Part shown: in pieces, positions 1-13,083 of the stretch
Layout: each line of letters begins with the position of its first letter
Position numbering within the stretch: the stretch's first letter is position 1
From: an uncultured Bacteroidota bacterium
GTDB lineage: Bacteria; Bacteroidota; Bacteroidia; Bacteroidales; UBA12481
Direction: 5' to 3'
Assembly (NCBI GenBank): GCA_903919925.1
Contig: CAIXKO010000904.1
Location: 1,625 to 65,624 of the forward strand
Length of the DNA: 64,000 bases
Translations under genes and position numbers: made by a program
Notes under the pieces: model-generated
Database searches by the model: none
Told to the model about the DNA's origin: nothing
Seen by the model: only the letters and a program-made list of their open reading frames with translations

Positions 1-4
1 TAAG

Positions 5-56
5 GAAAGTCAATGAGATAATTATTTTAATTATTTCATTGACTTTCTTTTATTTA
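5..56 (+). terminator. Rho-independent terminator-like hairpin closing the off-window upstream gene
   Basis: GAAAGTCAATGA (5-16) pairs with TCATTGACTTTC (36-47). Inner arms ATAATTA (18-24) and TAATTAT (28-34) flank a TTT loop. The stem is followed by TTTTATTT (48-55). Confidence 0.6.
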
Positions 57-170
57 TGCACCTTGGCTTGAATCGTTTTTGGTTTGTGTCAACCCCAATT
101 TGTTTCAAAGCAATTGGATAGTAGTTTCAGGATCATGTTTCTTCGTAGATATTAATGAAAACCAATCTTT

Positions 171-1355
171 ATGAAAGAAGTAGTCATCGTATCAGCGGTA
201 AGAACAGCAATTGGCAATTTTGGCGGAGCCTTGGCCGGGATTTCGGCTACAGAGTTGGGAATCATAGCGGCTAAAGAAGCGATCGTCAGAGCAGGCATCA
301 ATCCTTCAGAGATATCAGAAACCATCATTGGAAATATTCTGTCCGCTGGTCTGGGGCAGAACATCAGCCGTCAGATTGCAATAAAATCGGGAATACCAGA
401 TACTTCTCCTGCCATGACGATTAATAAATTATGTGGTTCAGGACTAAGGGCGGTTTCCATGGCGGCTCAGTTTATCATGCTGGGTGATGCCGAAGCCGTA
501 CTTGCGGGAGGTACCGAAAGCATGTCGAATGCGCCGTACTTGTTAATGCAGGGCCGCAATGGTTTCAGAATGGGCCATGGTCAAGTTATGGACAGCATGA
601 TCCTGGATGGGCTCACCGATTCATTCAACGATTACCACATGGGCATCACGGCAGAAAATATTGCCGAAAGGTGGAATATCAGCCGGGAGGATCAGGACAG
701 ATTTGCCTTGGAGAGCCAGCATCGGAGTGAGGCAGCTCAGAAATCAGGACGGTTTGCAGAAGAGATTGTTCCGGTGAGCATTGCCCAGCGAAAAGGAGAT
801 CCCATCATTATAAATACGGACGAATTCCCCAGGCACGGTTTGACCATCGAAAAACTATCGGCGCTGAAACCGGCTTTTAAAAAGGATGGTACGGTGACCG
901 CAGGTAACGCTTCGGGCATTAACGACGGGGCATCGATGCTCATCGTAATGTCGGGTGAGAAAGCCAGGAATTTGGGATTAAAGCCACTGGTTAGAATATT
1001 ATCGTACGGCAATGCAGCTCTCGATCCTGCCATCATGGGATACGGACCGGTAGCTGCAACTCAGGCAGCATTAAAAAGAGCAGGACTAACTGTTGATGAT
1101 ATTGACCTGATTGAGGCCAATGAGGCATTTGCGGCTCAATCCTTAGCGGTTGTCCGCGATCTAAAGCTCGATCCGATGAAAGTAAATGTGAACGGAGGGG
1201 CCATATCATTGGGGCATCCGATTGGCGCTTCAGGAGCCCGGATTCTGACCACCTTGATTTATGAGATGAAACGCCGGGATGCCAACAGGGGCCTGGCTAC
1301 CCTTTGTATTGGCGGTGGACAGGGAACCGCACTTATTATTGAAAACATCAAATAA
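171..1355 (+). CDS. Acetyl-CoA C-acetyltransferase (thiolase II)
   Basis: 394 aa. Thiolase signatures: [11 protein letters not shown] (acyl-Cys), [21 protein letters not shown], and C-terminal [10 protein letters not shown] (second catalytic Cys). Confidence 0.95.
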
Positions 1356-1374
1356 AAACTCAAAATAAATCATC

Positions 1375-2118
1375 ATGAAACAACTTGAAAACAAGGTTGC
1401 AATAATCACCGGCGGTGCAGATGGAATTGGCCGTGCAGGGGCCATCCGTTTTGCTGCCGAAGGGGCAACCGTCATCATTTGGGATATGAATGAAGATAAA
1501 GGCGCTCAAACAGTTGCCGAAATTGCAAATACCGGCGGGAAAGCGTACTTTGTTAAAGTGAATACTGCCTCCTACACCGATGTGGATAAAGCCACCAAAG
1601 ATGCCATTGAGCAGTTTGGCCGGATTGATATCCTGATCAATAATGCCGGTATTACCCGTGATGCATCCATCCGGAAAATGACTCCTGAACAATGGCAGCA
1701 GGTTATCGATGTTAACCTTACCGGCGTGTTCAATTGTGCTAAATGCGTAAGTGCCGGTATGGTCGAAAAAGGGTATGGACGAATTATCAATACCTCGTCA
1801 GTTGTTGCCCTATATGGCAACTTTGGCCAATCGAATTACGTAGCCACTAAAGCGGGAGTTATCGGGTTAACTAAAACCCTTGCCCGTGAATTGGGGCGGA
1901 AAGGCGTTACCGTTAATGCCGTTGCACCTGGCTTTATTGCTACGGACATGGTTAAGAAAATGCCGGAGAACATCCTGAAATCCATGGAAGAAAAAGTTCC
2001 GCTCGGCAGGCTTGGCAAGCCGGAAGAAATAGCATCAGCCTATTTATTTTTGGCCAGCGATGAGGCATCCTACATTAACGGAGCAACAATAAGTGTGGAC
2101 GGAGGAATTACGATATAG
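1375..2118 (+). CDS. Short-chain dehydrogenase/reductase, acetoacetyl-CoA reductase (PhaB)/FabG-like
   Basis: 247 aa. TGGADGIG Rossmann motif, NNAGITRD, and a catalytic S...YxxxK (NYVATKAG). The PGFIATDMV...VPLGRLGKPEEIA tail resembles PhaB/FabG. Confidence 0.9.
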   Translation: MKQLENKVAIITGGADGIGRAGAIRFAAEGATVIIWDMNEDKGAQTVAEIANTGGKAYFVKVNTASYTDVDKATKDAIEQFGRIDILINNAGITRDASIRKMTPEQWQQVIDVNLTGVFNCAKCVSAGMVEKGYGRIINTSSVVALYGNFGQSNYVATKAGVIGLTKTLARELGRKGVTVNAVAPGFIATDMVKKMPENILKSMEEKVPLGRLGKPEEIASAYLFLASDEASYINGATISVDGGITI

Positions 2119-2120
2119 CA

Positions 2121-3695
2121 ATGGCATCAACACAACAAGTCACCGGCGGAGCGATATTGATCGCGATATATGCAGCTGTTATCCTCTTTTTTGTGATTCG
2201 CGGAGCTTTGCGAACCAAAAACATCAGCGATTACGCGGTCGGGAATTTCAATTTTTCCCCTTTATTTGTTGGGCTATCCTTAGCCGCCGCCATGACGAGT
2301 GCGGCCACTTTTGTGATTAACCCGGGGCTGATAGCGGCTTATGGACTGAGCGGGGCGCTATCCTTTGGAATAGTATTCCCTATTGCCTCATTGATTTCAC
2401 TGGTTGTACTAACCAAAAGTTTTCGCAGGCATGGCACCAATGTAAAGGCACTCACCCTGGCCAGCTGGATTGGTACCCGCTATAACAGTAAAGGTTATGC
2501 CTTGTTTATAGGTTTTCTATCGGTTTTGTTAATAACATTTATTGTGCTGATTCTGGTTGCCATTACCAAAGTGATGAGCCAATCATTAAATATCAGCGAA
2601 TCCTGGATGTTATTTTTTGTGGTGGCTTTTGTATTTGGATATATGATGTTCGGAGGAGCCAATTCGATGGTCTATACGAATACGCTTCAGGCAATTGTGA
2701 TGGTAATAGTGGCGGTAATTCTCATTTCATCGGGTTATCCATATTTAAAAGACGGATTATTCGCGTTTTTTGATAAGCTTGCCACGGTCAATCCCGACCT
2801 GGTTAAACCCACGAACCCGGGAAGTCCATTATTCCGGGATTTCTTTGAGATCATATTTGCACAGATTATTGTAGGAGTGGCAGTTGTTTGCCAGCCCCAT
2901 ATTATCACAAAATCATTACTTCTAAAAAAAGAAAGCGATGTTAACCGATATCTGGTATCGGCGGTTATCATTCAGGCTCTTTTCTATTCTGTGGTATTTA
3001 CCGGATTATATGCGCGGTTAACCTTTCCTGATCTTGCTTCCAATGGAAAACCTTTGGGCATCGACGGTATAATACCTGCTTATGTAGTACAGGTTTTTTC
3101 GCAGGGATGGGTAGCAATCGGGATCGGGCTCATCGTTGTGCTGGGTTTAATCAGTGCAGGTTTATCCACTATTGAAGGTTTGATACAAAGTTTGAGTACC
3201 ACCATTACTTCAGATATAATAAAGCCATTAATTAGAAAACAGGCAACAACTGATCGCAACTACATCATGATTAACAGAATTGTGATCTTTGGAATGGCTT
3301 TAGTTTCATTTCTGGCTGCACGTTCGCAATTACTCCACCCCAACCTGAGTGTGGCTATTTTTGCACAAAACGGTGTTTATTCATTTTTTTCAATTGCATT
3401 TGTTCCCATAGTATTTGGTATTTTTCTAAAGAGCACCACACGTAATACCGCCTTAACCGGTTCAATATCTGCTTTATTGGTTTATTTTTTGGTTTATTAT
3501 CTGTTCCCCTGGCTGATACGGACTGCGGGAATTAGTTTAGGATTTTTTGACAAATATTTTATCGGAAAGGTTCAGAACCCGGCTATTGCAGCAGCCACTG
3601 CCATAACAGTTTCCGTATTAATTAGCCTGGTAGTATTTTATTTAAGCAGAAAACCCACACCGGAAAAGGAAAAGCTGACCGGAAATATTGCATAG
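2121..3695 (+). CDS. Sodium:solute symporter (SSS) family permease
   Basis: 524 aa and highly hydrophobic, with about 13 predicted helices by eye and SSS-like layout. Starts 2 nt after the preceding stop. Confidence 0.8.
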   Translation: MASTQQVTGGAILIAIYAAVILFFVIRGALRTKNISDYAVGNFNFSPLFVGLSLAAAMTSAATFVINPGLIAAYGLSGALSFGIVFPIASLISLVVLTKSFRRHGTNVKALTLASWIGTRYNSKGYALFIGFLSVLLITFIVLILVAITKVMSQSLNISESWMLFFVVAFVFGYMMFGGANSMVYTNTLQAIVMVIVAVILISSGYPYLKDGLFAFFDKLATVNPDLVKPTNPGSPLFRDFFEIIFAQIIVGVAVVCQPHIITKSLLLKKESDVNRYLVSAVIIQALFYSVVFTGLYARLTFPDLASNGKPLGIDGIIPAYVVQVFSQGWVAIGIGLIVVLGLISAGLSTIEGLIQSLSTTITSDIIKPLIRKQATTDRNYIMINRIVIFGMALVSFLAARSQLLHPNLSVAIFAQNGVYSFFSIAFVPIVFGIFLKSTTRNTALTGSISALLVYFLVYYLFPWLIRTAGISLGFFDKYFIGKVQNPAIAAATAITVSVLISLVVFYLSRKPTPEKEKLTGNIA

Positions 3696-3697
3696 TT

Positions 3698-5008
3698 ATG
3701 ACAAAAGACGAATTGATTTACCAGGAAAAGCTCATCAGCATTGAGGCGGCCGTTGAGTTAATAAAAAGCGATACGGACATTATTGTAGCACAATGTGCAT
3801 CGGAGCCACAAGGTTGTTTGTCGAAATTTCATCTGGCAAAAGACCGGGTAACCGAAGTAAAAGTATTCTCGGTACTTACATTAAAGCCATACGATTTTTA
3901 CATGATGCCTGAAATGAAAGGGCATTTTGAGTTATGCAGCTGGTTTCATGCCCCTGGATCGCGGGCGGCATTAAAAGCAAAAACAGGAACAGTTACTTAT
4001 GTTCCAAACATGCTACACCGGGCTGCCACTGACCGCCTTAAGGTACGCAAACCTCACCTTTTTTTCGGAACCTGCACCCCACCCGATGAAAAAGGTTTTG
4101 TATCGCTTTCATTAGGAATTACCTATGAGAAAGATATTATTGAAGCGGCAGAAATTGTGGTACTTGAGGTCAACGATCAATTACCAAGGACCCAGGGCGA
4201 TACCCATTTGCATGTAAGTGAAGCAACTTATTTTGTGGAATATTCGCAGGCACCACCTACCTTGCCTGCTCCTCAGCCCGATGAAGTTGCTTTGAGAATC
4301 GGCCGGCATATTGCGGATTTAGTGGAAGACGGATCCACCATTCAATTAGGAATCGGTGAGATTCCGAATGCAGCAGCGATGTCGTTACAAAACAAAAAGG
4401 ACCTCGGGGTGCATACTGAAATGATGGTTGACAGCATGATGGAGTTGTATCAAATGGGAGTGATCACCAACAAAAAAAAGGCAATTCATAAAGGTAAATT
4501 CATCTGCACTTTCGCAATGGGGAGTGAGAAATTGTACCAATGGCTCGATAATAATCCATCGATTGAATTTTTACGTGGCAGGTATGTAAACGATCCATGC
4601 GTGATGAAGCAGAATAGCCGGATGGTATCGATCAACACCTGCATCATGGTTGACTTTACCGGGCAGGTTTCAAGTGAATCCATTGGTATTGAGCAGTATT
4701 CAGGTACTGGCGGGCAAACTGATACGGCTGTAGGGGCCATTGAGGGAACTGATGGATTGGGTAAATCCATCATTGCCTGCAGGGCCACTGCCCGCGGAGG
4801 GGCCATATCAACCATTGTCCCAACTTTGCCTGAAGGAAGTGCGGTAACGCTGCATCGCAGTTATACTGATTATGTGGTAACCGAATTCGGCAGCGTACGG
4901 CTGACCGGACGAACCGTACGAGAGCGCACAAAAGCATTGATTTCCATTGCTCACCCGGATTTCAGGGAAGGTCTGACCCTTAAAGCAATTGAACTTGGCT
5001 ATTTATAG
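3698..5008 (+). CDS. Acetyl-CoA hydrolase/transferase family protein (4-hydroxybutyrate / butyryl-CoA:acetate CoA-transferase-like)
   Basis: 436 aa. LGIGEIPNAA, the GGQTD region and overall length are typical of the Cat/AbfT family. Starts 2 nt after the permease stop. Confidence 0.85.
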   Translation: MTKDELIYQEKLISIEAAVELIKSDTDIIVAQCASEPQGCLSKFHLAKDRVTEVKVFSVLTLKPYDFYMMPEMKGHFELCSWFHAPGSRAALKAKTGTVTYVPNMLHRAATDRLKVRKPHLFFGTCTPPDEKGFVSLSLGITYEKDIIEAAEIVVLEVNDQLPRTQGDTHLHVSEATYFVEYSQAPPTLPAPQPDEVALRIGRHIADLVEDGSTIQLGIGEIPNAAAMSLQNKKDLGVHTEMMVDSMMELYQMGVITNKKKAIHKGKFICTFAMGSEKLYQWLDNNPSIEFLRGRYVNDPCVMKQNSRMVSINTCIMVDFTGQVSSESIGIEQYSGTGGQTDTAVGAIEGTDGLGKSIIACRATARGGAISTIVPTLPEGSAVTLHRSYTDYVVTEFGSVRLTGRTVRERTKALISIAHPDFREGLTLKAIELGYL

Positions 5009-5046
5009 TGAAGTAAAAGACAAAGGCTAACACACAATATCTCAAA

Positions 5047-6054
5047 ATGATCCCTCTAAAGATTCTTGGCACCGGTTTATACGTACCCGGAACGGCCATC
5101 TCCAACTCAGAGTTAAAAAGTTTGACAGGGCTCGATTTCAATTCAGAGAAGCTGGAATCCAAACCCGGCATTTTCAACCGGCATATTGCGCACCTGCGTG
5201 GGATTCCTGAGACTACGGCTGATTTTGCCACTAAAGCCGCTTTGAGCGCCATTGGTGTTGCCGGAATTTCAGGGGATGATATTGGGTTATTTGTGGTAGG
5301 CACCGATACGCCCGAATATATTTCTCCCTCCACCTCCATTATTGTTCAGGGAAGAATACAAAAGCAGGAAACCTGGGCTTCAACATTTGATGTATCAGCA
5401 TCTTGTGCTAGTTTTACCATTGCTTTTGATACGGCAGCGCGGATCATGGCAACGGATTCATCCATTCAGTTTGCAGTTATTATCGGTGTTTACAATATGC
5501 CTGCCTACATCAGGCCCGACGATTCATTTGGGTACTCCATATTTGCAGACGGCGCCGGTGCGGTGGTAATCGGCAGAACAAGGGAAACCACATCAGGATA
5601 CATTGGGAGCCAACTACTTACCGATGGCACTCAATATGACTACATTGGCGTATACGCCGGTGGCACCAAAATGCCGGTCACCCAGGATGTTCTGGATAAC
5701 AAAAAGCAAGGGCTCCTGAGTTTACAGCCGTTGCCAGGCGATCGGAATGTAAGGCTATGGCCAAAGGTGGTAAACAAACTATTGACAAAATATGGTCTGA
5801 GTATCGGCGATGTCGACCACTTCATATTCACACAGATTAACCGGTCGGTCATTGCGGAGGTAATGGAAATTATTGGAGCTCCGATAACCAAAACCACTAC
5901 CATTATGGATAAATATGGGTATACCGGTTCAGGTTGTGTACCAATGGCATTCCATCACGCGGTAAACGGAGGTACGATCAGGCGCGGCGATCGTGTTCTT
6001 TTCATGGCATCCGGTGCAGGACTGGCAGTAGGAAGCAACCTGTTTATTTATTAA
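5047..6054 (+). CDS. KAS III (FabH)-like thiolase-fold protein; Cys retained, His/Asn positions substituted
   Basis: 335 aa. ILGTGLYVP N-terminus and FDVSASCASF (Cys120, codon 5404-5406). By-eye alignment to E. coli FabH puts FTQIN where HQAN sits and GYTGSG where GNTSAA sits. Confidence 0.85.
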   Translation: MIPLKILGTGLYVPGTAISNSELKSLTGLDFNSEKLESKPGIFNRHIAHLRGIPETTADFATKAALSAIGVAGISGDDIGLFVVGTDTPEYISPSTSIIVQGRIQKQETWASTFDVSASCASFTIAFDTAARIMATDSSIQFAVIIGVYNMPAYIRPDDSFGYSIFADGAGAVVIGRTRETTSGYIGSQLLTDGTQYDYIGVYAGGTKMPVTQDVLDNKKQGLLSLQPLPGDRNVRLWPKVVNKLLTKYGLSIGDVDHFIFTQINRSVIAEVMEIIGAPITKTTTIMDKYGYTGSGCVPMAFHHAVNGGTIRRGDRVLFMASGAGLAVGSNLFIY

Positions 6055-6068
6055 TTTCTCATCAATTT

Positions 6069-7121
6069 ATGTCAAACGTCAGCGAACATAATTTTCATGC
6101 AGGCATTTTAGGTACAGGCATTTATATCCCTGAGCACCGGATGACTGCAGCACAAATATCGACAGCCACAAAAGGTTTATGGAGCGAGGAAGCCATTATA
6201 AACAAATTGGGAATTGTTGAAAAATCGATTCCCGGACCGGAAGATGGCACGCAGGAAATGGGTGCCCTTGCAGCCTTGGATTGCCTGAGAAACACGAATA
6301 CCGCTGCCTCAGAAATCGACCTAATCCTCAGCATTGGTGAGGAATGGAAAGAATTCCCCTTAACGACTACAGGTATTTACATTCAAGAGCGTATTGGTGC
6401 TGTAAATGCCTGGGCAATAGATATTCAGCAGAGATGCTGCACCACCGTTGCCGCCCTCAAAATTGCGAAGGACATGATGTTTGCCGATCCGGATATCAAC
6501 ATGGTTCTCATTGCAGGGGGGTACCGGAACGGTGATTTCCTGGATTACACCAATGGCTCTGTTTCATTTATGTATAACCTGGCGGCCGGTGCCGGGGCAA
6601 TTTTGTTGAAAAAGAATCTTGGCTACAACGAACTTCTTGGATCACATATGATTACAGATGGAACTATGGCCCGGGATGTTGGAGTTGAAATCGGAGGAAC
6701 CGAAAAACCGGTTACCTGCGGAAATGTTTCGGAAGCATACTCTTCATTGAGAGTATTTGATGAAAAACATATGAAGGACCGTCTCAATGAAGTTTCCATG
6801 AAGAATTGGATGACTTGCATAGATCAGGCTTTTATCAAATCCGGGGTCAACAAATCAGAGTTGAATTTCCTTGCCTCATTACATTTTAAGAGGTCGGCAT
6901 ATTCTGGATTACTCGCTACTCTCGGATTAGTCCCGGATCAAACTATTTACCTGGAAAATTATGGTCATATCGGGCAGATCGATCAGATTCTATCCCTGCA
7001 TCTGGCGAATCAGATGGGGAAATTAACGGAGGGAAGCATTGTTTCGATGATTGCATCGGGAATTGGCTATGCCTGGGGTGCGAATGTTATCCGTTGGGGA
7101 AAACATAAGGTCCAGTCCTAA
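6069..7121 (+). CDS. Second KAS III (FabH)-like thiolase-fold protein with an apparent Cys/His/His set
   Basis: 350 aa from the ATG at 6069 (MSNVSEH...). The track ORF start at 5934 overlaps the previous gene. ILGTGIYIP, IDIQQRCCTT, SLHFKRS and NYGHIGQ are present. Confidence 0.8.
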   Translation: MSNVSEHNFHAGILGTGIYIPEHRMTAAQISTATKGLWSEEAIINKLGIVEKSIPGPEDGTQEMGALAALDCLRNTNTAASEIDLILSIGEEWKEFPLTTTGIYIQERIGAVNAWAIDIQQRCCTTVAALKIAKDMMFADPDINMVLIAGGYRNGDFLDYTNGSVSFMYNLAAGAGAILLKKNLGYNELLGSHMITDGTMARDVGVEIGGTEKPVTCGNVSEAYSSLRVFDEKHMKDRLNEVSMKNWMTCIDQAFIKSGVNKSELNFLASLHFKRSAYSGLLATLGLVPDQTIYLENYGHIGQIDQILSLHLANQMGKLTEGSIVSMIASGIGYAWGANVIRWGKHKVQS

Positions 7122-7282
7122 TCGAATATAATTAATTATCTATCTATCAACACTATTACTTAAATCAAAGAAACAAAACAATCTTAAGTCAACCCAGTAT
7201 AATATTCAATCTCTGCTTAACTTTTTGCTCAAATAAATACTTTTAAAGCACTAAAATATAATCATTTAATCAAAACAATAAC

Positions 7283-8113
7283 ATGAAAAACAGAGTATTC
7301 TTTTTCTTGACCATCGTGATGGCCGGTCTTATTGGGATTTCTTCTTGTGTAAAAGATGAAAACCTGGCACCAACCATCAAGTCAGCAGTTGTTTCAACCG
7401 ACAACAAAACCATTTTGGTTACCTTTTCTGAGGCAGTGTATGCCAAAGCCGACATGACCGGCGCAATTGATGCCACTACCCTTTCAGTAACTGCACCTGA
7501 AGCATTAAAGTTCACTTACACAGTTACCCACACAGCAGGCAGTTTGACTGCAACGGTTAATCTGGTTATCACCTCGATCATTCAGGGTACTGAAAAGTTC
7601 ACCGTCAAGCCAGCCACTGCTACAGCCATTTATGACAATGAAGGATTAGCCATGCTGGTAACGGCAGCAATCGATTCCAACACAGCAGCAAAAGATCTGG
7701 GAATTATTGGGAAATGGCTGTCTGAAGGAGCCAACGTAGCTCCATTATTGGTTACATACTTCAAAGTATTAAAGGTGGAAGCTGAGTTTAAAACCGATTT
7801 TACCTACAAAGTTAACCAGTTTAATATTGGCAATACCACCACTACTCCTGACCTGGTATTTACCGGCACCTTTGCAATTGCAAAATCAGCAGTAGGGAAT
7901 ATCTGGACTATCACGTGTACTCAGGAAATGCCTTACGCAGCAACCGCATCAGGTATTTTTGAAATTAAAACCAGTCCTGAGCTCTTATGGTACGAAGTTG
8001 TTCAAACATCAGGCACACAAAATGTTCCACCAACGCCTGCAGCTGGTTTCGGCAGTTCAAATGGCGGCACCTTGGGCGTGTTGAATGTTCAAAAATTTGC
8101 ACGTGTAATTTAG
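7283..8113 (+). CDS. Lipoprotein of unknown function
   Basis: 276 aa. Signal peptide plus lipobox (LIGISSC). Thr/Ala-rich, beta-rich sequence. Confidence 0.7.
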   Translation: MKNRVFFFLTIVMAGLIGISSCVKDENLAPTIKSAVVSTDNKTILVTFSEAVYAKADMTGAIDATTLSVTAPEALKFTYTVTHTAGSLTATVNLVITSIIQGTEKFTVKPATATAIYDNEGLAMLVTAAIDSNTAAKDLGIIGKWLSEGANVAPLLVTYFKVLKVEAEFKTDFTYKVNQFNIGNTTTTPDLVFTGTFAIAKSAVGNIWTITCTQEMPYAATASGIFEIKTSPELLWYEVVQTSGTQNVPPTPAAGFGSSNGGTLGVLNVQKFARVI

Positions 8114-8133
8114 GCGGTCCAAAATTGTGATCC

Positions 8134-9747
8134 ATGTATAAGATTACCATCGTTTTTCTGGCATCATTATTTGCAATTCTCTATCAATTGCCTGCTCAGA
8201 CTGCGCCTGAAAAACCGGCAGCTGAAGCTAATAAATTCAATTTGTTCAGCAATGACATGCCTTATAATGCGAAGGCAAATAAGGAGTTTCAGTTCCTCGC
8301 TTTTTTCATCAATCAGGGAGTAAACTCGAACATGTTTCCAAAAGCCAGTTTGTTTAACGGGCAACTGGTGGGAAGGCTTTTCGGGCCAAACTCTTCAACC
8401 ACTTCTGATAGCCTTAAGTCTAACTATTTTGAGCAGCGTATTATCCCATTTTTCATTTATCAGCCAAAATTGTTTAATGGGAAGGCAATTTTAAGAACAT
8501 CGCTGGAAATTGATTGGACCTGGGGGGATCAGGCTTATGGAATGAGTGGCAACAAGGGAAGCGCAATCAATGCGGATGAAGTGAATATTCAAACGCAGAA
8601 CATTGAATTAGAATTAATTCCCGCAAAAAACTTTGCAATCAATCTTGGACTGCAAAGATTGTTTGATACTCCATATAACCCTTACCGCACCATGTTCGAT
8701 AAAATGGCCAGCACCGGTTACCGACTGGCTTATTGGGGCACTGATGCGGTTGGAATTTCTGCCAGGTATGATGGTGATTACCAAAAGATTAAAGCTGGCT
8801 ATTATCTTCTGTATGAAAACAATACTGAAGGCGATGATGATGTTTTTTTAACAGAGTTGGTGTATCAGCGCAAACTGAGTTTGAAATGGAATGCCGGGGC
8901 GTCCATATATTATGTGCGTGACCGTGGCAAAGGGCAAGGGGGAGTATCGGTTTTTGGTGAAGGTTTAGCAAGCACACTGGCTGCCTACAATGGCGCCTAC
9001 GTGTTCAACATGCAGAAAGATTATAAGGCAGATGTAGCATGGATGGGCGCAACTTTCAGCCGCAATCCCGATTTTATGCTTGATCCGTTGCAGTTGACCG
9101 GTTTTTTCAATTACAATCTCGGCAACGTAGTATCCAGGGTTGGCGATGCTTATCAAAAAACCGCCGGAATAGCCGGATTTGCCACAAATATCAGAGCCGC
9201 TTATCGATATGGCCGCACCCTGAATGATTACGTTTCGGCAGATTTCATATATGCATCGGGTGATCAGAATGGCATTATCGATAAAAAATACACTGGGGTC
9301 ATTACCGGAAATACCTGGGGAATGCCAGCCAATATTTTTATCGGGACCGGTGGGTACCTGCTGTTTCCGCATGCAAATGTAGTGAACCGCTTTACCCCGG
9401 TAATTTCCGATATTTCCAATATGGGCTATGGATTGATGGGAGGCACTATAAATTTAGCCTATGATTTTATCCCGAACAGGCTGAACGCCAAAGCTGGAAC
9501 AGCAATGGCATACAGTCCCGTCAAACCTCAGGGAGGCGGCAGGATGCTTGGCACGGAAATCAATGGCGCCTTATCTTACAATATCGGTCCATACATGAGT
9601 ATTGAGATGCATGCCGCCTATTTATGGCTGGGCAATTTTTTCGACAGCCAGGATGATTCTCATGGTTCCTCGATAAACGGATATTCCGCAACACGGCCCG
9701 TTAATCCGTACACTGTATTTGTGGTTTATAAATGGCTAATGTTCTGA
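8134..9747 (+). CDS. Putative outer-membrane beta-barrel protein (porin-like)
   Basis: 537 aa. Signal peptide (LYQLPAQTA), alternating aromatic/Gly-rich beta-strand pattern, and a C-terminal ...YKWLMF ending in Phe, as in OMPs. Confidence 0.65.
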   Translation: MYKITIVFLASLFAILYQLPAQTAPEKPAAEANKFNLFSNDMPYNAKANKEFQFLAFFINQGVNSNMFPKASLFNGQLVGRLFGPNSSTTSDSLKSNYFEQRIIPFFIYQPKLFNGKAILRTSLEIDWTWGDQAYGMSGNKGSAINADEVNIQTQNIELELIPAKNFAINLGLQRLFDTPYNPYRTMFDKMASTGYRLAYWGTDAVGISARYDGDYQKIKAGYYLLYENNTEGDDDVFLTELVYQRKLSLKWNAGASIYYVRDRGKGQGGVSVFGEGLASTLAAYNGAYVFNMQKDYKADVAWMGATFSRNPDFMLDPLQLTGFFNYNLGNVVSRVGDAYQKTAGIAGFATNIRAAYRYGRTLNDYVSADFIYASGDQNGIIDKKYTGVITGNTWGMPANIFIGTGGYLLFPHANVVNRFTPVISDISNMGYGLMGGTINLAYDFIPNRLNAKAGTAMAYSPVKPQGGGRMLGTEINGALSYNIGPYMSIEMHAAYLWLGNFFDSQDDSHGSSINGYSATRPVNPYTVFVVYKWLMF

Positions 9748-9788
9748 TAATTCATTTAATAATTACTGAAATGGAAACTATGATAAAA

Positions 9789-10730
9789 ATGAAGATCAGA
9801 TTATTGATACCATTTATATTCTTGCTTTTTACCGCTTGCACACCCTATCAGAACCTTCCCAAAATCAGCAAGATGAGTGAGTTAAAATACGATTTCCCTG
9901 TGCATTATGCCGAATTAAGCAAAGGGATCAAGCTTGCCTATATTGATGAAGGGAAAGGGGCTGAAACGATCATTATGATACATGGGTTGGGCAGTTATTT
10001 ACCGGCATGGAAAAAAAACATTGGTGAACTGAGCAAGCATTTCCGGGTTATCGCGGTTGACCTTCCCGGATATGGTAAATCATCGAAGGCTCCTCACAGC
10101 GGGTTAATGTCATTTTATGCAGGTGTTATTGCCGATTTGATCACTAATTTGAAATTAGGTCCGGTTAATCTTGCGGGCCATTCCATGGGAGGGCAAATCT
10201 CACTGGTTCTGGCGCTGGAAAAACCCGGATTGGTTAAGAGGCTGATACTGGTAGATCCGGCAGGTTTTGAAGCCTTTCATGCCGGCCAAAAAAACTGGTT
10301 TAAGGATGTTATGACCCCGAATCTGGTTCGATTGACCACTGTTGACGCCATTGAAACCAATCTGGCAAGCAATTTTTACCGCATGCCAGTTGATGCCAGG
10401 TTTATGATTGAAGACCGGATAGCGATGCGCGATGCCGATGATTTCGAAGCTTATTGTTTGGCAGTTGCCCGCTCAGTGCACGGCATGGTAGAGGAAGCAG
10501 TTCTCGATAAGCTCCCGGAAATCAGGATACCCACGTTGATATTTTTTGGTGAAAACGATATGCTGATACCAAACCGGTACCTTAATCCCGGCTTTACCCG
10601 TAAAATCGCTGAAACCGGTGCAGGCTTGATCAAAGGCAGTAAGCTGGTGATGGTTCCCAAATGCGGGCATTTTATGATGTTTGAGAAACCGGAAGTGTTT
10701 AACTCAGGCGTTTTGGACTTCATTAGGTAG
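9789..10730 (+). CDS. Alpha/beta-hydrolase-fold lipoprotein (esterase/lipase-like)
   Basis: Preferred start MKIRLLIPFIFLLFTAC (lipobox) at 9789; the track start 9732 overlaps the OMP gene. HGLGS oxyanion region, GHSMGG nucleophile elbow and a late GH (CGHFMM). Confidence 0.8.
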   Translation: MKIRLLIPFIFLLFTACTPYQNLPKISKMSELKYDFPVHYAELSKGIKLAYIDEGKGAETIIMIHGLGSYLPAWKKNIGELSKHFRVIAVDLPGYGKSSKAPHSGLMSFYAGVIADLITNLKLGPVNLAGHSMGGQISLVLALEKPGLVKRLILVDPAGFEAFHAGQKNWFKDVMTPNLVRLTTVDAIETNLASNFYRMPVDARFMIEDRIAMRDADDFEAYCLAVARSVHGMVEEAVLDKLPEIRIPTLIFFGENDMLIPNRYLNPGFTRKIAETGAGLIKGSKLVMVPKCGHFMMFEKPEVFNSGVLDFIR

Positions 10731-10755
10731 CATCAACCAAATAGCAAAAAGATGG

Positions 10756-10792
10756 AGATGGGAGCTCAAATGAATGGCTCCCATCTTTTTTT
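10756..10792 (+). terminator. Rho-independent terminator after the hydrolase gene
   Basis: AGATGGGAGC (10756-10765) pairs with GCTCCCATCT (10777-10786) across an 11-nt loop. It runs into a T tract through 10792. Confidence 0.8.
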
Positions 10793-10820
10793 GCCGTATT
10801 TTCAACCCAAAATCCGATTT

Positions 10821-12254
10821 ATGAGGTTGAAACTTGCCACATTCAGCGATTTTGCCAATCAGCTTTATCCGCACGAAGCCGATTATCTGGCAAGCATCCA
10901 AAATTTCAGTAAAGGAATTAACAGCCAGATAATCAATACTATCAAATTCAATAGTCATAATCCTCAGAAGCCCAGGATATTTGATCCTACCATTGATAAG
11001 CGCACCTATTCTTATGTTAAAAGCTGGATTGTTCAATCGTTGGACAAGGCGGATGTGGACAAATTCTTTGAGTGGCTAGCCTATACAGAAAAACAAGTAA
11101 TACTCGATTCCATAACACCAGACGAGGAGAAAGAAATTCTGTCATTCATAAAAACCATTGGTCCATCGCAGTATTTTTTTCTTCGTTTTTATGAACTGCT
11201 TCAGTATTTCAGGGATTATCTGCTGATCAGACTCAGAAACCGGATATACAAACCTGTTAATGATTACTTACAAAAGCATGAAGCTGCCTATCATCATGGT
11301 ATGGCGATTAATATTCAGTTGAACCAGGCAGCGGAAGAAATCATCAGACAGCATGAAACACTTGATGCAGAACCAATTCACTACAGCGATTTCTTAAAAA
11401 CCACTTTCAGCAATCCCAATTTGGATGGCTATACCCGATATCGCGCAGCGGTAAGGCTCACCTTCCTTTATTACAATTATCGTGAATTTGAAAACCTTAG
11501 GGTGGTATATGATGAGTTAGACACGCTGTTTAAAACAGATGTCTTTTATTCAAAACGTATACTCGCAAATTACTACTCAAATAGGGCAATGATGCACAGC
11601 AAACTCAATGAATTAGGGCTAGCTGAGCAATACGGGCACCTTTCGATCCGGCAAAAAAACAGCGATTATTTGTTTTACCTGGCCAATCTTTGCGGGGTAT
11701 TGCTGCGAAGCGGTAAATATGAGAAGGCCCTTAAACTCATGAGTTCATCGATTCCGGAATTAAAGAAAACCAGCAGTTTTTATAATAAAATCGGATTTGC
11801 CAGTTTTTACACCCGAACGTTGGTGTTTAATAAAATGGCGAAAAACGCCGTCAGTTACGCAAGCACATTCCTGGATGCCTATAAAAAGGAGATTTTCGAA
11901 ACCCGCTGGCATCTTTTTTTCTCTGCCTACCTGCAGGCACTGCTGAACGCTGAAAACTACAGCCGGCTTTTATCGGTTGCCAAGAGGTACAATCTTTTGG
12001 CTCTGGAGAAAAAAATCATTGATAAAACGGTTTACATGCCTTTGCTTCTTTGGTATAATGAGGTGGCACTATACATGGAAGGCCAGCAGAGCAAAGAGAA
12101 ACTGGTGGAAACTATTTTGTCATCAGCCCGGATGTTGCTCCAGAATAAATACAAAGCCGGAAGAATTTATGAATTACTGGAGAATCTATCAGATTCCATT
12201 CCTTCAGAGGTTGCAGTTATCCGTCAAAAACTTTGTGAGGTTCAGAACAATTAG
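10821..12254 (+). CDS. Hypothetical all-helical (TPR-like) protein
   Basis: 477 aa from the ATG at 10821 (MRLKLATF...). The longer track ORF from 10752 would include the terminator hairpin. No signal peptide and no catalytic motif recognised. Confidence 0.6.
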   Translation: MRLKLATFSDFANQLYPHEADYLASIQNFSKGINSQIINTIKFNSHNPQKPRIFDPTIDKRTYSYVKSWIVQSLDKADVDKFFEWLAYTEKQVILDSITPDEEKEILSFIKTIGPSQYFFLRFYELLQYFRDYLLIRLRNRIYKPVNDYLQKHEAAYHHGMAINIQLNQAAEEIIRQHETLDAEPIHYSDFLKTTFSNPNLDGYTRYRAAVRLTFLYYNYREFENLRVVYDELDTLFKTDVFYSKRILANYYSNRAMMHSKLNELGLAEQYGHLSIRQKNSDYLFYLANLCGVLLRSGKYEKALKLMSSSIPELKKTSSFYNKIGFASFYTRTLVFNKMAKNAVSYASTFLDAYKKEIFETRWHLFFSAYLQALLNAENYSRLLSVAKRYNLLALEKKIIDKTVYMPLLLWYNEVALYMEGQQSKEKLVETILSSARMLLQNKYKAGRIYELLENLSDSIPSEVAVIRQKLCEVQNN

Positions 12255-12273
12255 GATTAAAACGATCGTAAAT

Positions 12274-13083
12274 TCAGACGGCGGAGTCTTTTGGGATGGT
12301 AAAAATAAAGGTACTTCCTTTCCCTTCTTCACTCTCCACCCAAATCTGTCCATTATGTTGTTCAACAAAATCCTTGCAGATAATCAGTCCCAGGCCAGTG
12401 CTGGGTTCACCATCGGTTCCTGGCCTGCCGGTTTGTCCCGATATCTTAAACAACTGATCCACCAGCTCTTTTTTCATGCCGATGCCTGTGTCACGAACTC
12501 TTATTTCAATCAAATCTCCTTCCCGTTTCCTGGCTGACACATCTACATTACCTCCTTTTTGAGTGAATTTTACCGCGTTTAGCACCAGGTTACGTAGAAC
12601 AGTCTCAAACATTCGCTTATCAGCAAACACCTCGAGATAATCCGGAATCGTTATTTCCATTTCTATATTCTTGCTGTGTGCAGAATCCCTGGTTAACTGA
12701 AGGCATTCCATAACCTGAGTTGCCAAATTGAAAGTCACTGGGTTATAGCTGAACATTCCCCTTTGCATACTTGCCCAGTCCAACAAATTATCCAATAACC
12801 CATAAAGGCTTGTAGCTGAATTATTCAGCAACCTAGCCATTTTTTCAAGCCTCTCGGGCGGCAGAGTTTTTGCATCCTCGGCCATCAAACCGGTAAGGCC
12901 CATAAACGACGTAATCGGACTCCGCAAGTCATGCGCAATAATGGAAAAGAACTTGTCCTTTTCTGCAATAAATCCAGATAGTTCTTCATTCTTCGCTTTT
13001 AGAGCCGCAAAGTAGTTACCTGACATTTTGAAATATTTATATATTCCCACAATTCCTAATACCAAAATCATCAGGTGTGCCAA
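12274..13083 (-). CDS. Sensor histidine kinase, catalytic fragment (HisKA + HATPase_c); downstream part of a frameshifted gene
   Basis: H-box FSIIAHDLRSPIT, N-box LNAVKFT, G1 VRDTGIGM and G2 GLGLIICK. This frame stays open upstream of the nominal TTG start to at least 13170. Confidence 0.85.
   Translation of the reverse strand: MAHLMILVLGIVGIYKYFKMSGNYFAALKAKNEELSGFIAEKDKFFSIIAHDLRSPITSFMGLTGLMAEDAKTLPPERLEKMARLLNNSATSLYGLLDNLLDWASMQRGMFSYNPVTFNLATQVMECLQLTRDSAHSKNIEMEITIPDYLEVFADKRMFETVLRNLVLNAVKFTQKGGNVDVSARKREGDLIEIRVRDTGIGMKKELVDQLFKISGQTGRPGTDGEPSTGLGLIICKDFVEQHNGQIWVESEEGKGSTFIFTIPKDSAV

Follow-up and report, generated by a model that had tools for sequence, protein, structure and literature searches.

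A conserved Bacteroidales locus with two KAS III-fold proteins, probably for the import of a small hydroxyacyl ester and its CoA-dependent breakdown

What task could bring a thiolase, a reductase, an importer and a CoA-transferase together with two proteins of the ketoacyl synthase III (KAS III) fold and three proteins of the cell envelope? The question is raised by a locus at the start of a 64,000-nucleotide stretch of DNA (the window; contig CAIXKO010000904.1 of assembly GCA_903919925.1, positions 1,625 to 65,624) from an uncultured Bacteroidota bacterium of the Bacteroidales lineage UBA12481. A preliminary description of the window had placed here nine same-strand genes between two hairpin terminators and had not recognized the combination as a described pathway. 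All nine open reading frames (ORFs) are present at the positions claimed, on the + strand between 171 and 10730, both hairpins were located, and the literature that we searched contains no description of the locus or of its gene combination. There is good support for the general role that we assign to it, namely to import a small hydroxyacyl ester and to degrade it by CoA-dependent steps. The more specific reading that we favor, to which we give slightly less than an even chance, is that the genes form a regulon dedicated to the catabolism of a small ester that comes from outside the cell and is built from a short 3-hydroxy acid. As its substrate we would name, as a reasoned guess, (R)-3-hydroxybutyrate oligomers shed from polyhydroxybutyrate (PHB). 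The nine genes are as follows.

171 to 1355, + strand: g1, acetyl-CoA C-acetyltransferase, a short-chain thiolase II (Thiolase_N and Thiolase_C domains)
1375 to 2118, + strand: g2, classical short-chain dehydrogenase/reductase (SDR) of the FabG/PhaB type, an (R)-3-hydroxyacyl/3-oxoacyl oxidoreductase
2121 to 3695, + strand: g3, sodium:solute symporter (SSS) permease (PF00474, 123 bits)
3698 to 5008, + strand: g4, family I CoA-transferase of the 4-hydroxybutyrate/butyryl-CoA:acetate type (PF13336 and PF02550)
5047 to 6054, + strand: g5, KasA, KAS III fold, with Cys120 kept, Thr262 at the His position of FabH and Tyr292 at the Asn position
6069 to 7121, + strand: g6, KasB, NCBIfam family NF005308 (PRK06840, "3-oxoacyl-ACP synthase"; 446.7 bits against a cut-off of 315)
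7283 to 8113, + strand: g7, lipoprotein with the surface-export signal C-V-K-D-E, no family
8134 to 9747, + strand: g8, outer-membrane beta-barrel of 537 amino acids with a signal peptide (PF13372, Alginate_exp, 25.0 bits against a cut-off of 25.2)
9780 to 10730, + strand: g9, lipoprotein serine alpha/beta hydrolase (Abhydrolase_1, 104 bits) with the nucleophile elbow GHSMGG

Searches of Pfam, NCBIfam and PDB upheld the family that had been assigned to each of the nine genes. The reported packing was borne out as well, with gaps of 19, 2, 2, 38 and 14 nt from g1 to g6 (a range of 2-38 nt), an AT-rich gap of 161 nt (7122-7282) between g6 and g7, and 20 nt between g7 and g8. Two gene starts were corrected. 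KasB begins at 6069 and not at the TTG at 5934, and g9 most likely begins at 9780 or 9789 (MIKMKIR...LFTA followed by the lipobox Cys); its ORF would overlap g8 if 9732 were taken as the start, and the conserved N-terminal extension of g9 lies over the stop of the outer-membrane protein gene.

That these genes belong together was evident from a scan of one genome per species, which returned 190 KasB relatives; the best 80 loci were kept, 40 of them from Bacteroidales. Every one of the 30 Bacteroidales loci that span the region has the order thiolase-SDR-SSS-CoA-transferase-KasA-KasB-lipoprotein-barrel-hydrolase, and the remaining ten, which are cut by contig ends, are consistent as far as they reach. 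The gene order is preserved in no fewer than 30 anaerobic species of Bacteroidales. Protein identity among the Bacteroidales loci is approximately 55-90%. The neighborhood search therefore confirmed the nine-gene block and extended it by a tenth gene, g10, which belongs to it too. The nine genes are one conserved functional unit, and their arrangement is far from chance. Among 201 sampled genomes of the order, KasB scores above its family cut-off in 11, which belong to several families, and KasA stands beside it wherever the neighboring match was listed. Because its spread is so patchy, the locus is accessory, as is typical of an accessory nutrient locus.

The kind of chemistry served by this unit can be approached through its relatives in other phyla. 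Clusters whose KasB is 59-71% identical to that of the locus occur in Acholeplasmataceae, Izemoplasmatales, Erysipelotrichaceae, Christensenellales, Tissierellia and one Bacillaceae genome, and their usual order is a divergent TetR gene, thiolase, SDR, sometimes a hydrolase, KasB, the LivHMGF importer with a binding protein, CoA-transferase and one or two hydrolases. On a single strand they carry counterparts of the Bacteroidales thiolase (47-52% identical), SDR (50-59%), KasB (59-66% in this comparison) and CoA-transferase (44-48%), along with alpha/beta hydrolases; KasA is absent from the clusters of Firmicutes and Mycoplasmatota. Approximately ten of these loci add MaoC, a member of the (R)-specific hydratase family, together with Bcd and EtfBA, some add acetate kinase, and in Youngiibacter KasB adjoins MaoC-Bcd-EtfBA alone. 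Two cultured Mycoplasmatota strains, WC30 and zrk7, have the Firmicutes-type cluster. Of 40 loci, 27 encode a Bacillus PhaZ-type hydrolase, and the one from Erysipelotrichaceae passes NF050089, the model for intracellular depolymerases of short-chain-length polyhydroxyalkanoate (PHA), with 375 bits against a cut-off of 300. A second hydrolase, which is PcaD-like, is placed after the CoA-transferase. The binding-protein importer, the fermentation genes and the small genomes argue for catabolism, and the combination of PhaZ-type, MaoC-type and FabG/PhaB-type enzymes points to (R)-3-hydroxyacyl units, most simply 3-hydroxybutyrate esters. The Bacillaceae cluster (Bacillaceae bacterium S4-13-58, L084:89-9499) has a KasB 69-71% identical to that of the window and starts with the HTH_8 tail of a sigma-54-type activator; it holds a Liv importer, a PcaD-like hydrolase and a 276-amino acid soluble protein with a methyl-accepting chemotaxis protein signaling domain, and no thiolase or SDR lies on its contig.

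Set against these TetR/Liv/KasB clusters, the Bacteroidales locus has an SSS permease in place of the ATP-binding cassette (ABC) importer, and a protein of the tetratricopeptide repeat (TPR) type and a GTCAACC box in place of TetR. It lacks the cytoplasmic PhaZ-type and PcaD-like hydrolases, its only hydrolase being a lipoprotein that probably faces the periplasm, and it has gained a predicted surface lipoprotein, a barrel and KasA. The locus is a Bacteroidales-specific rebuild of a widespread, uncharacterized catabolic cluster.

These comparisons also bear on the direction of the pathway. The preliminary description had treated the synthesis of 3-hydroxybutyryl-CoA as an equal alternative to the uptake and oxidation of 3-hydroxybutyrate or acetoacetate, perhaps released from PHB oligomers. 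Given the related clusters and the lack of a PHA synthase, catabolism fits better: the Firmicutes importer, the PhaZ-type hydrolase, acetate kinase, MaoC-Bcd-Etf and the missing PhaC all favor uptake and oxidation, although the substrate named for it is still an inferred one. In a broader form of the synthetic alternative, a lipid, oligoester or polyketide derived from 3-hydroxyacyl units would be made by the thiolase, the reductase and the KAS III pair and then exported or attached at the surface by the barrel, the lipoprotein and an acyl-hydrolase or acyltransferase. A thiolase and a PhaB-like reductase do provide the first steps to 3-hydroxybutyryl-CoA, KAS III-like pairs are known from secondary metabolism, and the barrel g8 is faintly alginate-export-like. 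However, the related clusters carry a binding-protein-dependent ABC importer and stand beside acetate kinase and Bcd-Etf in fermenters with small genomes, the SSS symporter is itself an importer, the CoA-transferase is an enzyme of salvage and catabolism, and a surface lipoprotein with a periplasmic hydrolase is a nutrient-capture layout. With no acyl carrier protein (ACP), dehydratase, enoyl reductase, ligase or exporter in the locus, we consider biosynthesis and export improbable.

The favored reading, a regulon for the breakdown of a 3-hydroxy acid ester, draws on the first two enzymes of the locus, a short-chain thiolase and an SDR that passes FabG models, which describe an (R)-specific family. 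The thiolase g1 scores 572 bits with NF004206 and 522 bits with BktB and is the only thiolase of the genome (a single tblastn match). The SDR g2 passes the FabG model NF004198 (318.6 bits against a cut-off of 296) and falls just under the acetoacetyl-CoA reductase model TIGR01829 (277 bits against 302); a second FabG-like gene, 46% identical to g2, is found on contig C854. No specific NCBIfam family was passed by g3, which is the inner-membrane importer in place of the Liv-type ABC system of the Firmicutes clusters. The CoA-transferase g4, the sole member of its family in the genome (one match in a genome search), scores 345.6 bits against the 4-hydroxybutyrate CoA-transferase of PDB entry 3eh7. 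This similarity to solved 4-hydroxybutyrate CoA-transferases, along with the resemblance of the hydrolases to lactonases, could mean that the locus serves the catabolism of 4-hydroxybutyrate or gamma-butyrolactone, with g4 as a true 4-hydroxybutyrate CoA-transferase and the hydrolase as a lactonase. Yet 4-hydroxybutyryl-CoA dehydratase (HpaB_N family) had no match in the whole genome and none in the related clusters, so that the classical partner of an AbfT-type transferase is missing, and a thiolase and a 3-oxoacyl reductase would have no direct role on a 4-hydroxy acid. We regard this alternative as very improbable, and the AbfT plus AbfD route was rejected as such, since AbfD is absent and the transferase half is matched by similarity only.

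The rest of the genome sets further limits on the pathway. A PHA synthase (PhaC) of either type was not found in it, so any polyester must be foreign, and the mobilization of the organism's own PHB was rejected on this ground. Pta and Ack are encoded elsewhere in the genome, and acetyl-CoA from the pathway can therefore give ATP. Two further gene groups were observed. Contig C205 (5965-9225) carries phosphotransacetylase, an Hbd-like 3-hydroxyacyl-CoA dehydrogenase and acetate kinase in a row, with the dehydrogenase between pta and ackA. Contig C202 (1-7607) carries, on one strand, an IcmF-like fused B12 acyl-CoA mutase, an acyl-CoA dehydrogenase, EtfB, EtfA and a membrane Fe-S (CCG-type) oxidoreductase, a set that resembles a membrane-linked module for the oxidation of short-chain acyl-CoA.

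How would the substrate reach these enzymes? The three genes after the AT-rich gap encode envelope proteins. In 22 orthologues of g7 the lipobox is followed by the acidic motif, whereas 16 loci have a shorter acidic lipoprotein instead of g7, along with a more divergent barrel and hydrolase; g7 and both variants have a lipobox Cys and then K-D-E or an acidic run (signal form C-S/V-K-D-E). Acidic residues after the lipid-bearing Cys are the surface-exposure signal of Bacteroidota. The AlphaFold2 model of g7 (predicted local distance difference test score, pLDDT, of 74) has an immunoglobulin-like domain and a C-terminal eight-stranded, lipocalin-like barrel; its fold matches are weak, with lipocalin-like proteins the only recurring ones, and nothing close was found among solved structures. 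We regard g7 as a candidate substrate catcher. The barrel g8 is present in 37 loci, is not a TonB-dependent receptor and has no relative in PDB. For the hydrolase g9, all of the best NCBIfam matches lie below their cut-offs, the PDB entries that match best are BphD/HsaD-type C-C hydrolases, and in a six-frame search g9 gave the genome's best match to NF050089, at 76 bits. The N-termini of 37 g9 orthologues read C-(S)-T-P-Y-K, with no acidic residues past the lipid-bearing Cys, for which reason g9 probably faces the periplasm. The surface esterase of the preliminary description is thus probably to be placed on the periplasmic side, and it is g7 that has the surface signal instead. As a whole, the layout of a surface binder and a periplasmic esterase fits nutrient capture without SusC or SusD.

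The most puzzling members of the locus are KasA and KasB. The preliminary description had found no role for a KAS III pair in a simple catabolic route, and we agree. Both proteins carry the ACP_syn_III and ACP_syn_III_C domains, and neither has the Cys-His-Asn triad of FabH, which is replaced by Cys/Thr/Tyr in KasA and by Cys, a shifted His and His in KasB. Neither reaches the cut-off of 249 for the curated FabH score (TIGR00747/NF006829), KasA having 188 bits and KasB 99 bits, and a housekeeping FabH with intact HQAN and GNT is encoded on a separate contig, C103. KasA is not a member of NF005308 (126.8 bits against 315) and is approximately 26% identical to KasB and 25% identical to the genome's own FabH. 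In an alignment to FabH, its Cys, Thr and Tyr are invariant across 30 orthologues. Rather than being a decayed copy, KasA is part of a separate, wider family that shares the motifs FTQxN and GYTGS. In KasB the corresponding residues are Cys123, His272 (one position past the His column of FabH), an invariant Lys two residues past this shifted His (Lys274), His300 at the Asn position and the motif GEEWKE at 90-95, 28-33 residues ahead of the Cys; across 80 sequences from two phyla, neither these Cys, His, Lys and His residues nor GEEWKE vary. Among solved structures KasB has no close relative, the best matches being FabH proteins at approximately 117 bits with the family profile.

The two genes are adjacent in 40 loci, with a median gap of 17 nt. 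An obligate heterodimer is nevertheless not implied. KasB occurs alone in Firmicutes, and KasA types occur alone or in tandem elsewhere, which argues that each can work without the other. One cluster with a KasA type and no KasB (L095:7691-16695) holds two acyl-CoA ligases, two hydrolases, a FabG-like SDR and a Liv importer, as well as two TPR regulators of the MalT/BTAD type; another (L100:6379-15894) holds hydrolases, a FabG-like SDR, a Liv importer and TetR. A short metagenome contig (L099:327-2319) carries a tandem KasA-type pair, 41% and 48% identical to KasA, and both paralogues have FTQINRS and GYTGSAC. The suggestion that KasA is a dead partner, as in PqsBC, is weakened by its strong conservation and by its occurrence without KasB in similar clusters.

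The acyl-enzyme of FabH is formed on the Cys with the aid of backbone amides, and His and Asn stabilize the enolate that arises from the decarboxylation of malonyl-ACP (PMC10054515). Having the Cys and lacking His and Asn, KasA should still be acylated but should not perform decarboxylative condensation, whereas the residues of KasB would allow either acyl transfer or some Claisen-type chemistry. We infer that both proteins probably catalyze Cys-dependent acyl transfer between esters and CoA, rather than condensation, because their constant partners are esterases and CoA-activating enzymes, because no ACP or carboxylase is present, and because KasA in the Bacteroidales cytoplasm stands where Firmicutes have cytoplasmic hydrolases.

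A different view of the pair leads to a rival for the whole locus, namely the same kind of catabolic regulon acting on another small ester, lactone, or beta-keto or hydroxy acid (candidates include enol-lactones, acids derived from beta-diketones and 3-hydroxy acids of C5-C6), with KAS III-like enzymes that do real C-C chemistry on CoA esters. This chemistry could be a non-decarboxylative Claisen or retro-Claisen reaction, as in OleA, HMG-CoA synthase and thiolase, or the decarboxylation of a carboxylated acyl-CoA, and it would deliver acetoacetyl-CoA to g2 and g1. KasB has an invariant Glu pair in GEEWKE, 32 residues ahead of the Cys, at a site that we take to be the place of the catalytic Glu in HMG-CoA synthase, and its Cys-His-His-Lys set resembles that of FabB/FabF. 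The partners point both ways. For the most widespread hydrolase partner the highest scores come from 3-oxoadipate enol-lactonase models (136-143 bits), g9 has the C-C hydrolases noted above as its best PDB matches, and the clusters in which KasA types lie hold acyl-CoA ligases, SDR, hydrolases and importers and no PhaZ-type gene; however, every hydrolase score is far under its family cut-off, and the PhaZ-type, MaoC and FabG/PhaB-type partners indicate (R)-3-hydroxyacyl units. KasA, moreover, has no second catalytic residue known from condensing enzymes, and the Bacteroidales locus has no carboxylase, ACP, dehydratase or acyl-CoA dehydrogenase. We hold C-C chemistry to be somewhat unlikely while giving it substantial weight.

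Are the cytoplasmic and envelope genes expressed for the same purpose? The features that bear on this question, together with g10 and its promoter, are the following.

3 to 56, + strand: upstream hairpin found by a hairpin scan, AT-rich, 20 bp (stem 3-49), with a T-rich tail
88 to 95, + strand: GTCAACCC box 1, putative binding site for the regulator of promoter 1, 76 nt 5' of the thiolase ATG
7188 to 7195, + strand: GTCAACCC box 2, putative binding site for the regulator of internal promoter 2, 88 nt 5' of the lipoprotein ATG
7239 to 7246, + strand: -7-like promoter element TACTTTTA of the internal promoter, Bacteroidota type
10757 to 10792, + strand: downstream terminator, GC-rich 9-bp hairpin (10757-10765/10777-10785) with T7 at 10786-10792
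10797 to 10804, + strand: -7-like promoter element TATTTTCA for g10 itself, directly after the terminator
10821 to 12254, + strand: g10, all-helical TPR-type protein of 477 amino acids, no family, which travels with the locus

The terminator-bracketed locus of the preliminary description is better read as two units with a common upstream box than as one operon. A GTCAACC(C/T) box, for which the background rate is 0.077 per 300 nt, precedes the thiolase gene in 27 of the 30 orthologous loci, roughly 80 nt ahead of the ATG, or roughly 170 nt in loci with a longer leader. The same box stands in the gap between KasB and the lipoprotein gene in 34 of 38 loci, approximately 95 nt before the lipoprotein ATG, and GTCGACC takes its place in three more. 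In these gaps the box is followed by a conserved AAATA(C/A)TTTTAACC, and the TACTTTTA of the window resembles TAnnTTTG, which we take to be the Bacteroidota -7 consensus. Across the 7-Mb genome, ten boxes are intergenic and face a gene within 250 nt, two of them being the boxes of the locus. Because the same box precedes the thiolase gene and the lipoprotein gene, we read the locus as two predicted transcription units, one of six cytoplasmic genes and one of three envelope genes, with separate promoters, that form one regulon through a nearly private cis element, and this shared box provides independent support for a common function of both units. Further regulon members were sought through the box and rejected, as the other eight oriented intergenic copies precede unrelated genes. 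Four more copies of GTCAACCC lie in the window (15843, 21253, 45059 and 50648), which makes 6 in total versus 1.7 expected; these four are absent from the genome-wide list of intergenic, gene-facing copies. In the leader of the first unit (96-160), TTGGAT(TC) is conserved approximately 25 nt past the GTCAACC box and GGAATA...GTTTCTTCGT approximately 55 nt past it. An RNA-hairpin reading of this leader was rejected, since by eye the boxes are kept as sequence and not as pairing, and an Rfam scan of 1-12500 found no RNA family.

The upstream hairpin is the terminator of an unrelated upstream gene and the left border of the locus; the genes 5' of the window, for a secreted cupredoxin-like protein and another ORF, are unrelated to it. 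GTCAAT is found in each arm of this hairpin (8-14 and 38-44), and many orthologous loci have a GGTC(C/A)A-type half-box approximately 75-100 nt 5' of the GTCAACC box, at both units, so the hairpin may double as a distal regulator site. The downstream hairpin is the intrinsic terminator of the second unit, and hairpins that resemble it are also present in orthologous gaps. An ORF listed from 10752 crosses this terminator; the true start of g10 is at 10821, and GTAATTTCA(A/T)CCCAAA is kept approximately 20 nt ahead of its ATG in most loci.

A candidate for the protein that acts at the boxes is g10. It was found in 32 loci and follows the hydrolase in 31 of them; in the remaining one (L029) it is divergent and lies 5' of the thiolase gene, as expected of a gene that is tied to the locus and not to a position. 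Its AlphaFold2 model (pLDDT 91) consists of an N-terminal helical bundle followed by a TPR solenoid. The best structural matches are TPR peptide receptors of the Rap/NprR type, none of them significant (best Foldseek E value of 2e-3, TM-scores of 0.43-0.56), and family searches found no DNA-binding family. We take g10 to be a candidate ligand-sensing regulator.

Taken together, these observations suggest the following sequence of events for the favored 3-hydroxy acid ester. The surface lipoprotein g7 and the barrel g8 would carry the compound across the outer membrane, the periplasm-facing esterase g9 would trim it, and the symporter g3 would take up the acid or short ester. The CoA-transferase g4 would then load this compound onto CoA at the expense of acetyl-CoA. 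KasA and KasB, by means of their conserved Cys, would shift acyl groups between ester and thioester, for example to turn a dimer-CoA into two molecules of 3-hydroxybutyryl-CoA. Finally, the SDR g2 would oxidize (R)-3-hydroxybutyryl-CoA and the thiolase g1 would yield two acetyl-CoA, from which ATP could be made by way of Pta-Ack. The PHB link of the Bacteroidales version is drawn by analogy, because no convincing secreted PHB depolymerase was found and because g9 is only 23-34% identical to the Firmicutes hydrolases.

Several points weigh against this proposal. In the genome there is no convincing secreted PHB depolymerase, only threshold-level esterase matches of the kind that Bacteroides thetaiotaomicron also gives. 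The hydrolase g9 is not a PhaZ orthologue, and the PHA depolymerase model NF050089 gives it 90.9 bits, over the N-terminal half only, against the 300 required. The commonest hydrolase partner elsewhere is PcaD-like, which suggests lactones as much as linear esters, and the closest relatives of g4 are 4-hydroxybutyrate enzymes. The Cys-His-His set and conserved Lys of KasB would also suit a decarboxylating condensing enzyme of the FabB/FabF type. Lastly, plain 3-hydroxybutyrate catabolism needs no KAS III-like enzyme, which leaves the two best-conserved genes without a proven task.

A bolder proposal would give them one. KasA and KasB could be the founders of two KAS III-fold families recruited to catabolism, thiol-dependent ester:CoA acyltransferases that open imported oligo-esters by thiolysis, in a regulon that g10 switches at GTCAACC boxes in Bacteroidales. 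We consider this proposal speculative and doubtful. If it is true, thiolysis would keep the energy of the ester bond as acyl-CoA, where hydrolysis would waste it. With the catabolic role proposed for the locus, two large families now labeled "3-oxoacyl-ACP synthase III" in databases would have a catabolic job. The locus would likewise explain how widespread anaerobes of sediments, lakes and digesters feed on bacterial polyester fragments or similar esters, a carbon flow for which almost no genes are known so far in anaerobes. It also bears on how PHA bioplastics are broken down anaerobically, and it provides a clear case, from Bacteroidota, of an outer-membrane uptake module that is not of the Sus type, along with a testable pair of regulator and operator.

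In comparison with known systems, the likeness to E. coli atoDAEB that was drawn in the preliminary description stands for the logic and for the thiolase: in both cases the genes for a permease and a short-chain thiolase accompany one for a CoA-transferase that takes its CoA from acetyl-CoA. It does not extend to the families of the other two proteins. AtoDA is a two-subunit 3-oxoacid CoA-transferase and is accompanied by AtoE, whereas the locus has a single-chain AbfT-family transferase (AcetylCoA_hydro/AcetylCoA_hyd_C) and an SSS symporter; atoDAEB also lacks an SDR, KAS III-like genes, a hydrolase and an outer-membrane module, and membership was rejected. FabH and the other KAS III enzymes share with KasA and KasB the fold and a nucleophilic Cys in the same column, but in the locus His-Asn has become Thr-Tyr (KasA) or a shifted His and His (KasB), and no ACP or fab gene is nearby. 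Paired KAS III-like proteins are known from PqsBC and from LstAB/NltAB of the beta-lactone pathways, and CerJ, ChlB3/ChlB6 and DpsC are KAS III-like O-acyltransferases. The locus has in common with this group two adjacent KAS III-fold genes with unlike active sites, in which the residues for decarboxylation are lost and the acyl-bearing Cys is kept, as is the case in enzymes that pass acyl groups on and do not condense them. PqsC, CerJ and ChlB3 are only remote relatives, however, at 26-39 bits against the KasB profile, and the systems are biosynthetic, with ACP-bound or anthraniloyl/polyketide substrates. The OleABCD or beta-lactone pathway, with an OleA-type condensing enzyme, the AMP-ligase OleC, the reductase OleD and the hydrolase OleB, differs in its gene content, given that the locus has no AMP-binding gene, that its SDR is of the classical FabG type and that its hydrolase is an exported lipoprotein. 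The plan resembles that of the Sus-type polysaccharide utilization loci of Bacteroidota, in which a lipoprotein at the surface, a channel in the outer membrane, a hydrolase in the periplasm and an importer in the inner membrane are co-regulated together with a local regulator. The locus differs from the SusC/SusD type in having neither a TonB-dependent SusC nor a SusD nor any glycoside hydrolase. The only match of g8 is to Alginate_exp, at the threshold, g7 belongs to no family, and the presumed target is an acyl ester. PHB mobilization and 3-hydroxybutyrate fermentation are served by Bacillus-type PhaZ, PhaA, PhaB and PhaJ and by fermentation of the Ilyobacter type. The described PHB pathways lack the CoA-transferase, the importer, the outer-membrane module, the two KAS III-like enzymes and this regulator, but they share with the locus a short-chain thiolase, an (R)-type 3-oxoacyl reductase and a serine esterase, and the likeness continues in the related Firmicutes clusters with their MaoC-type hydratases and a hydrolase that passes NF050089. 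PHB mobilization and anaerobic 3-hydroxybutyrate fermentation are the nearest described biology to this locus.

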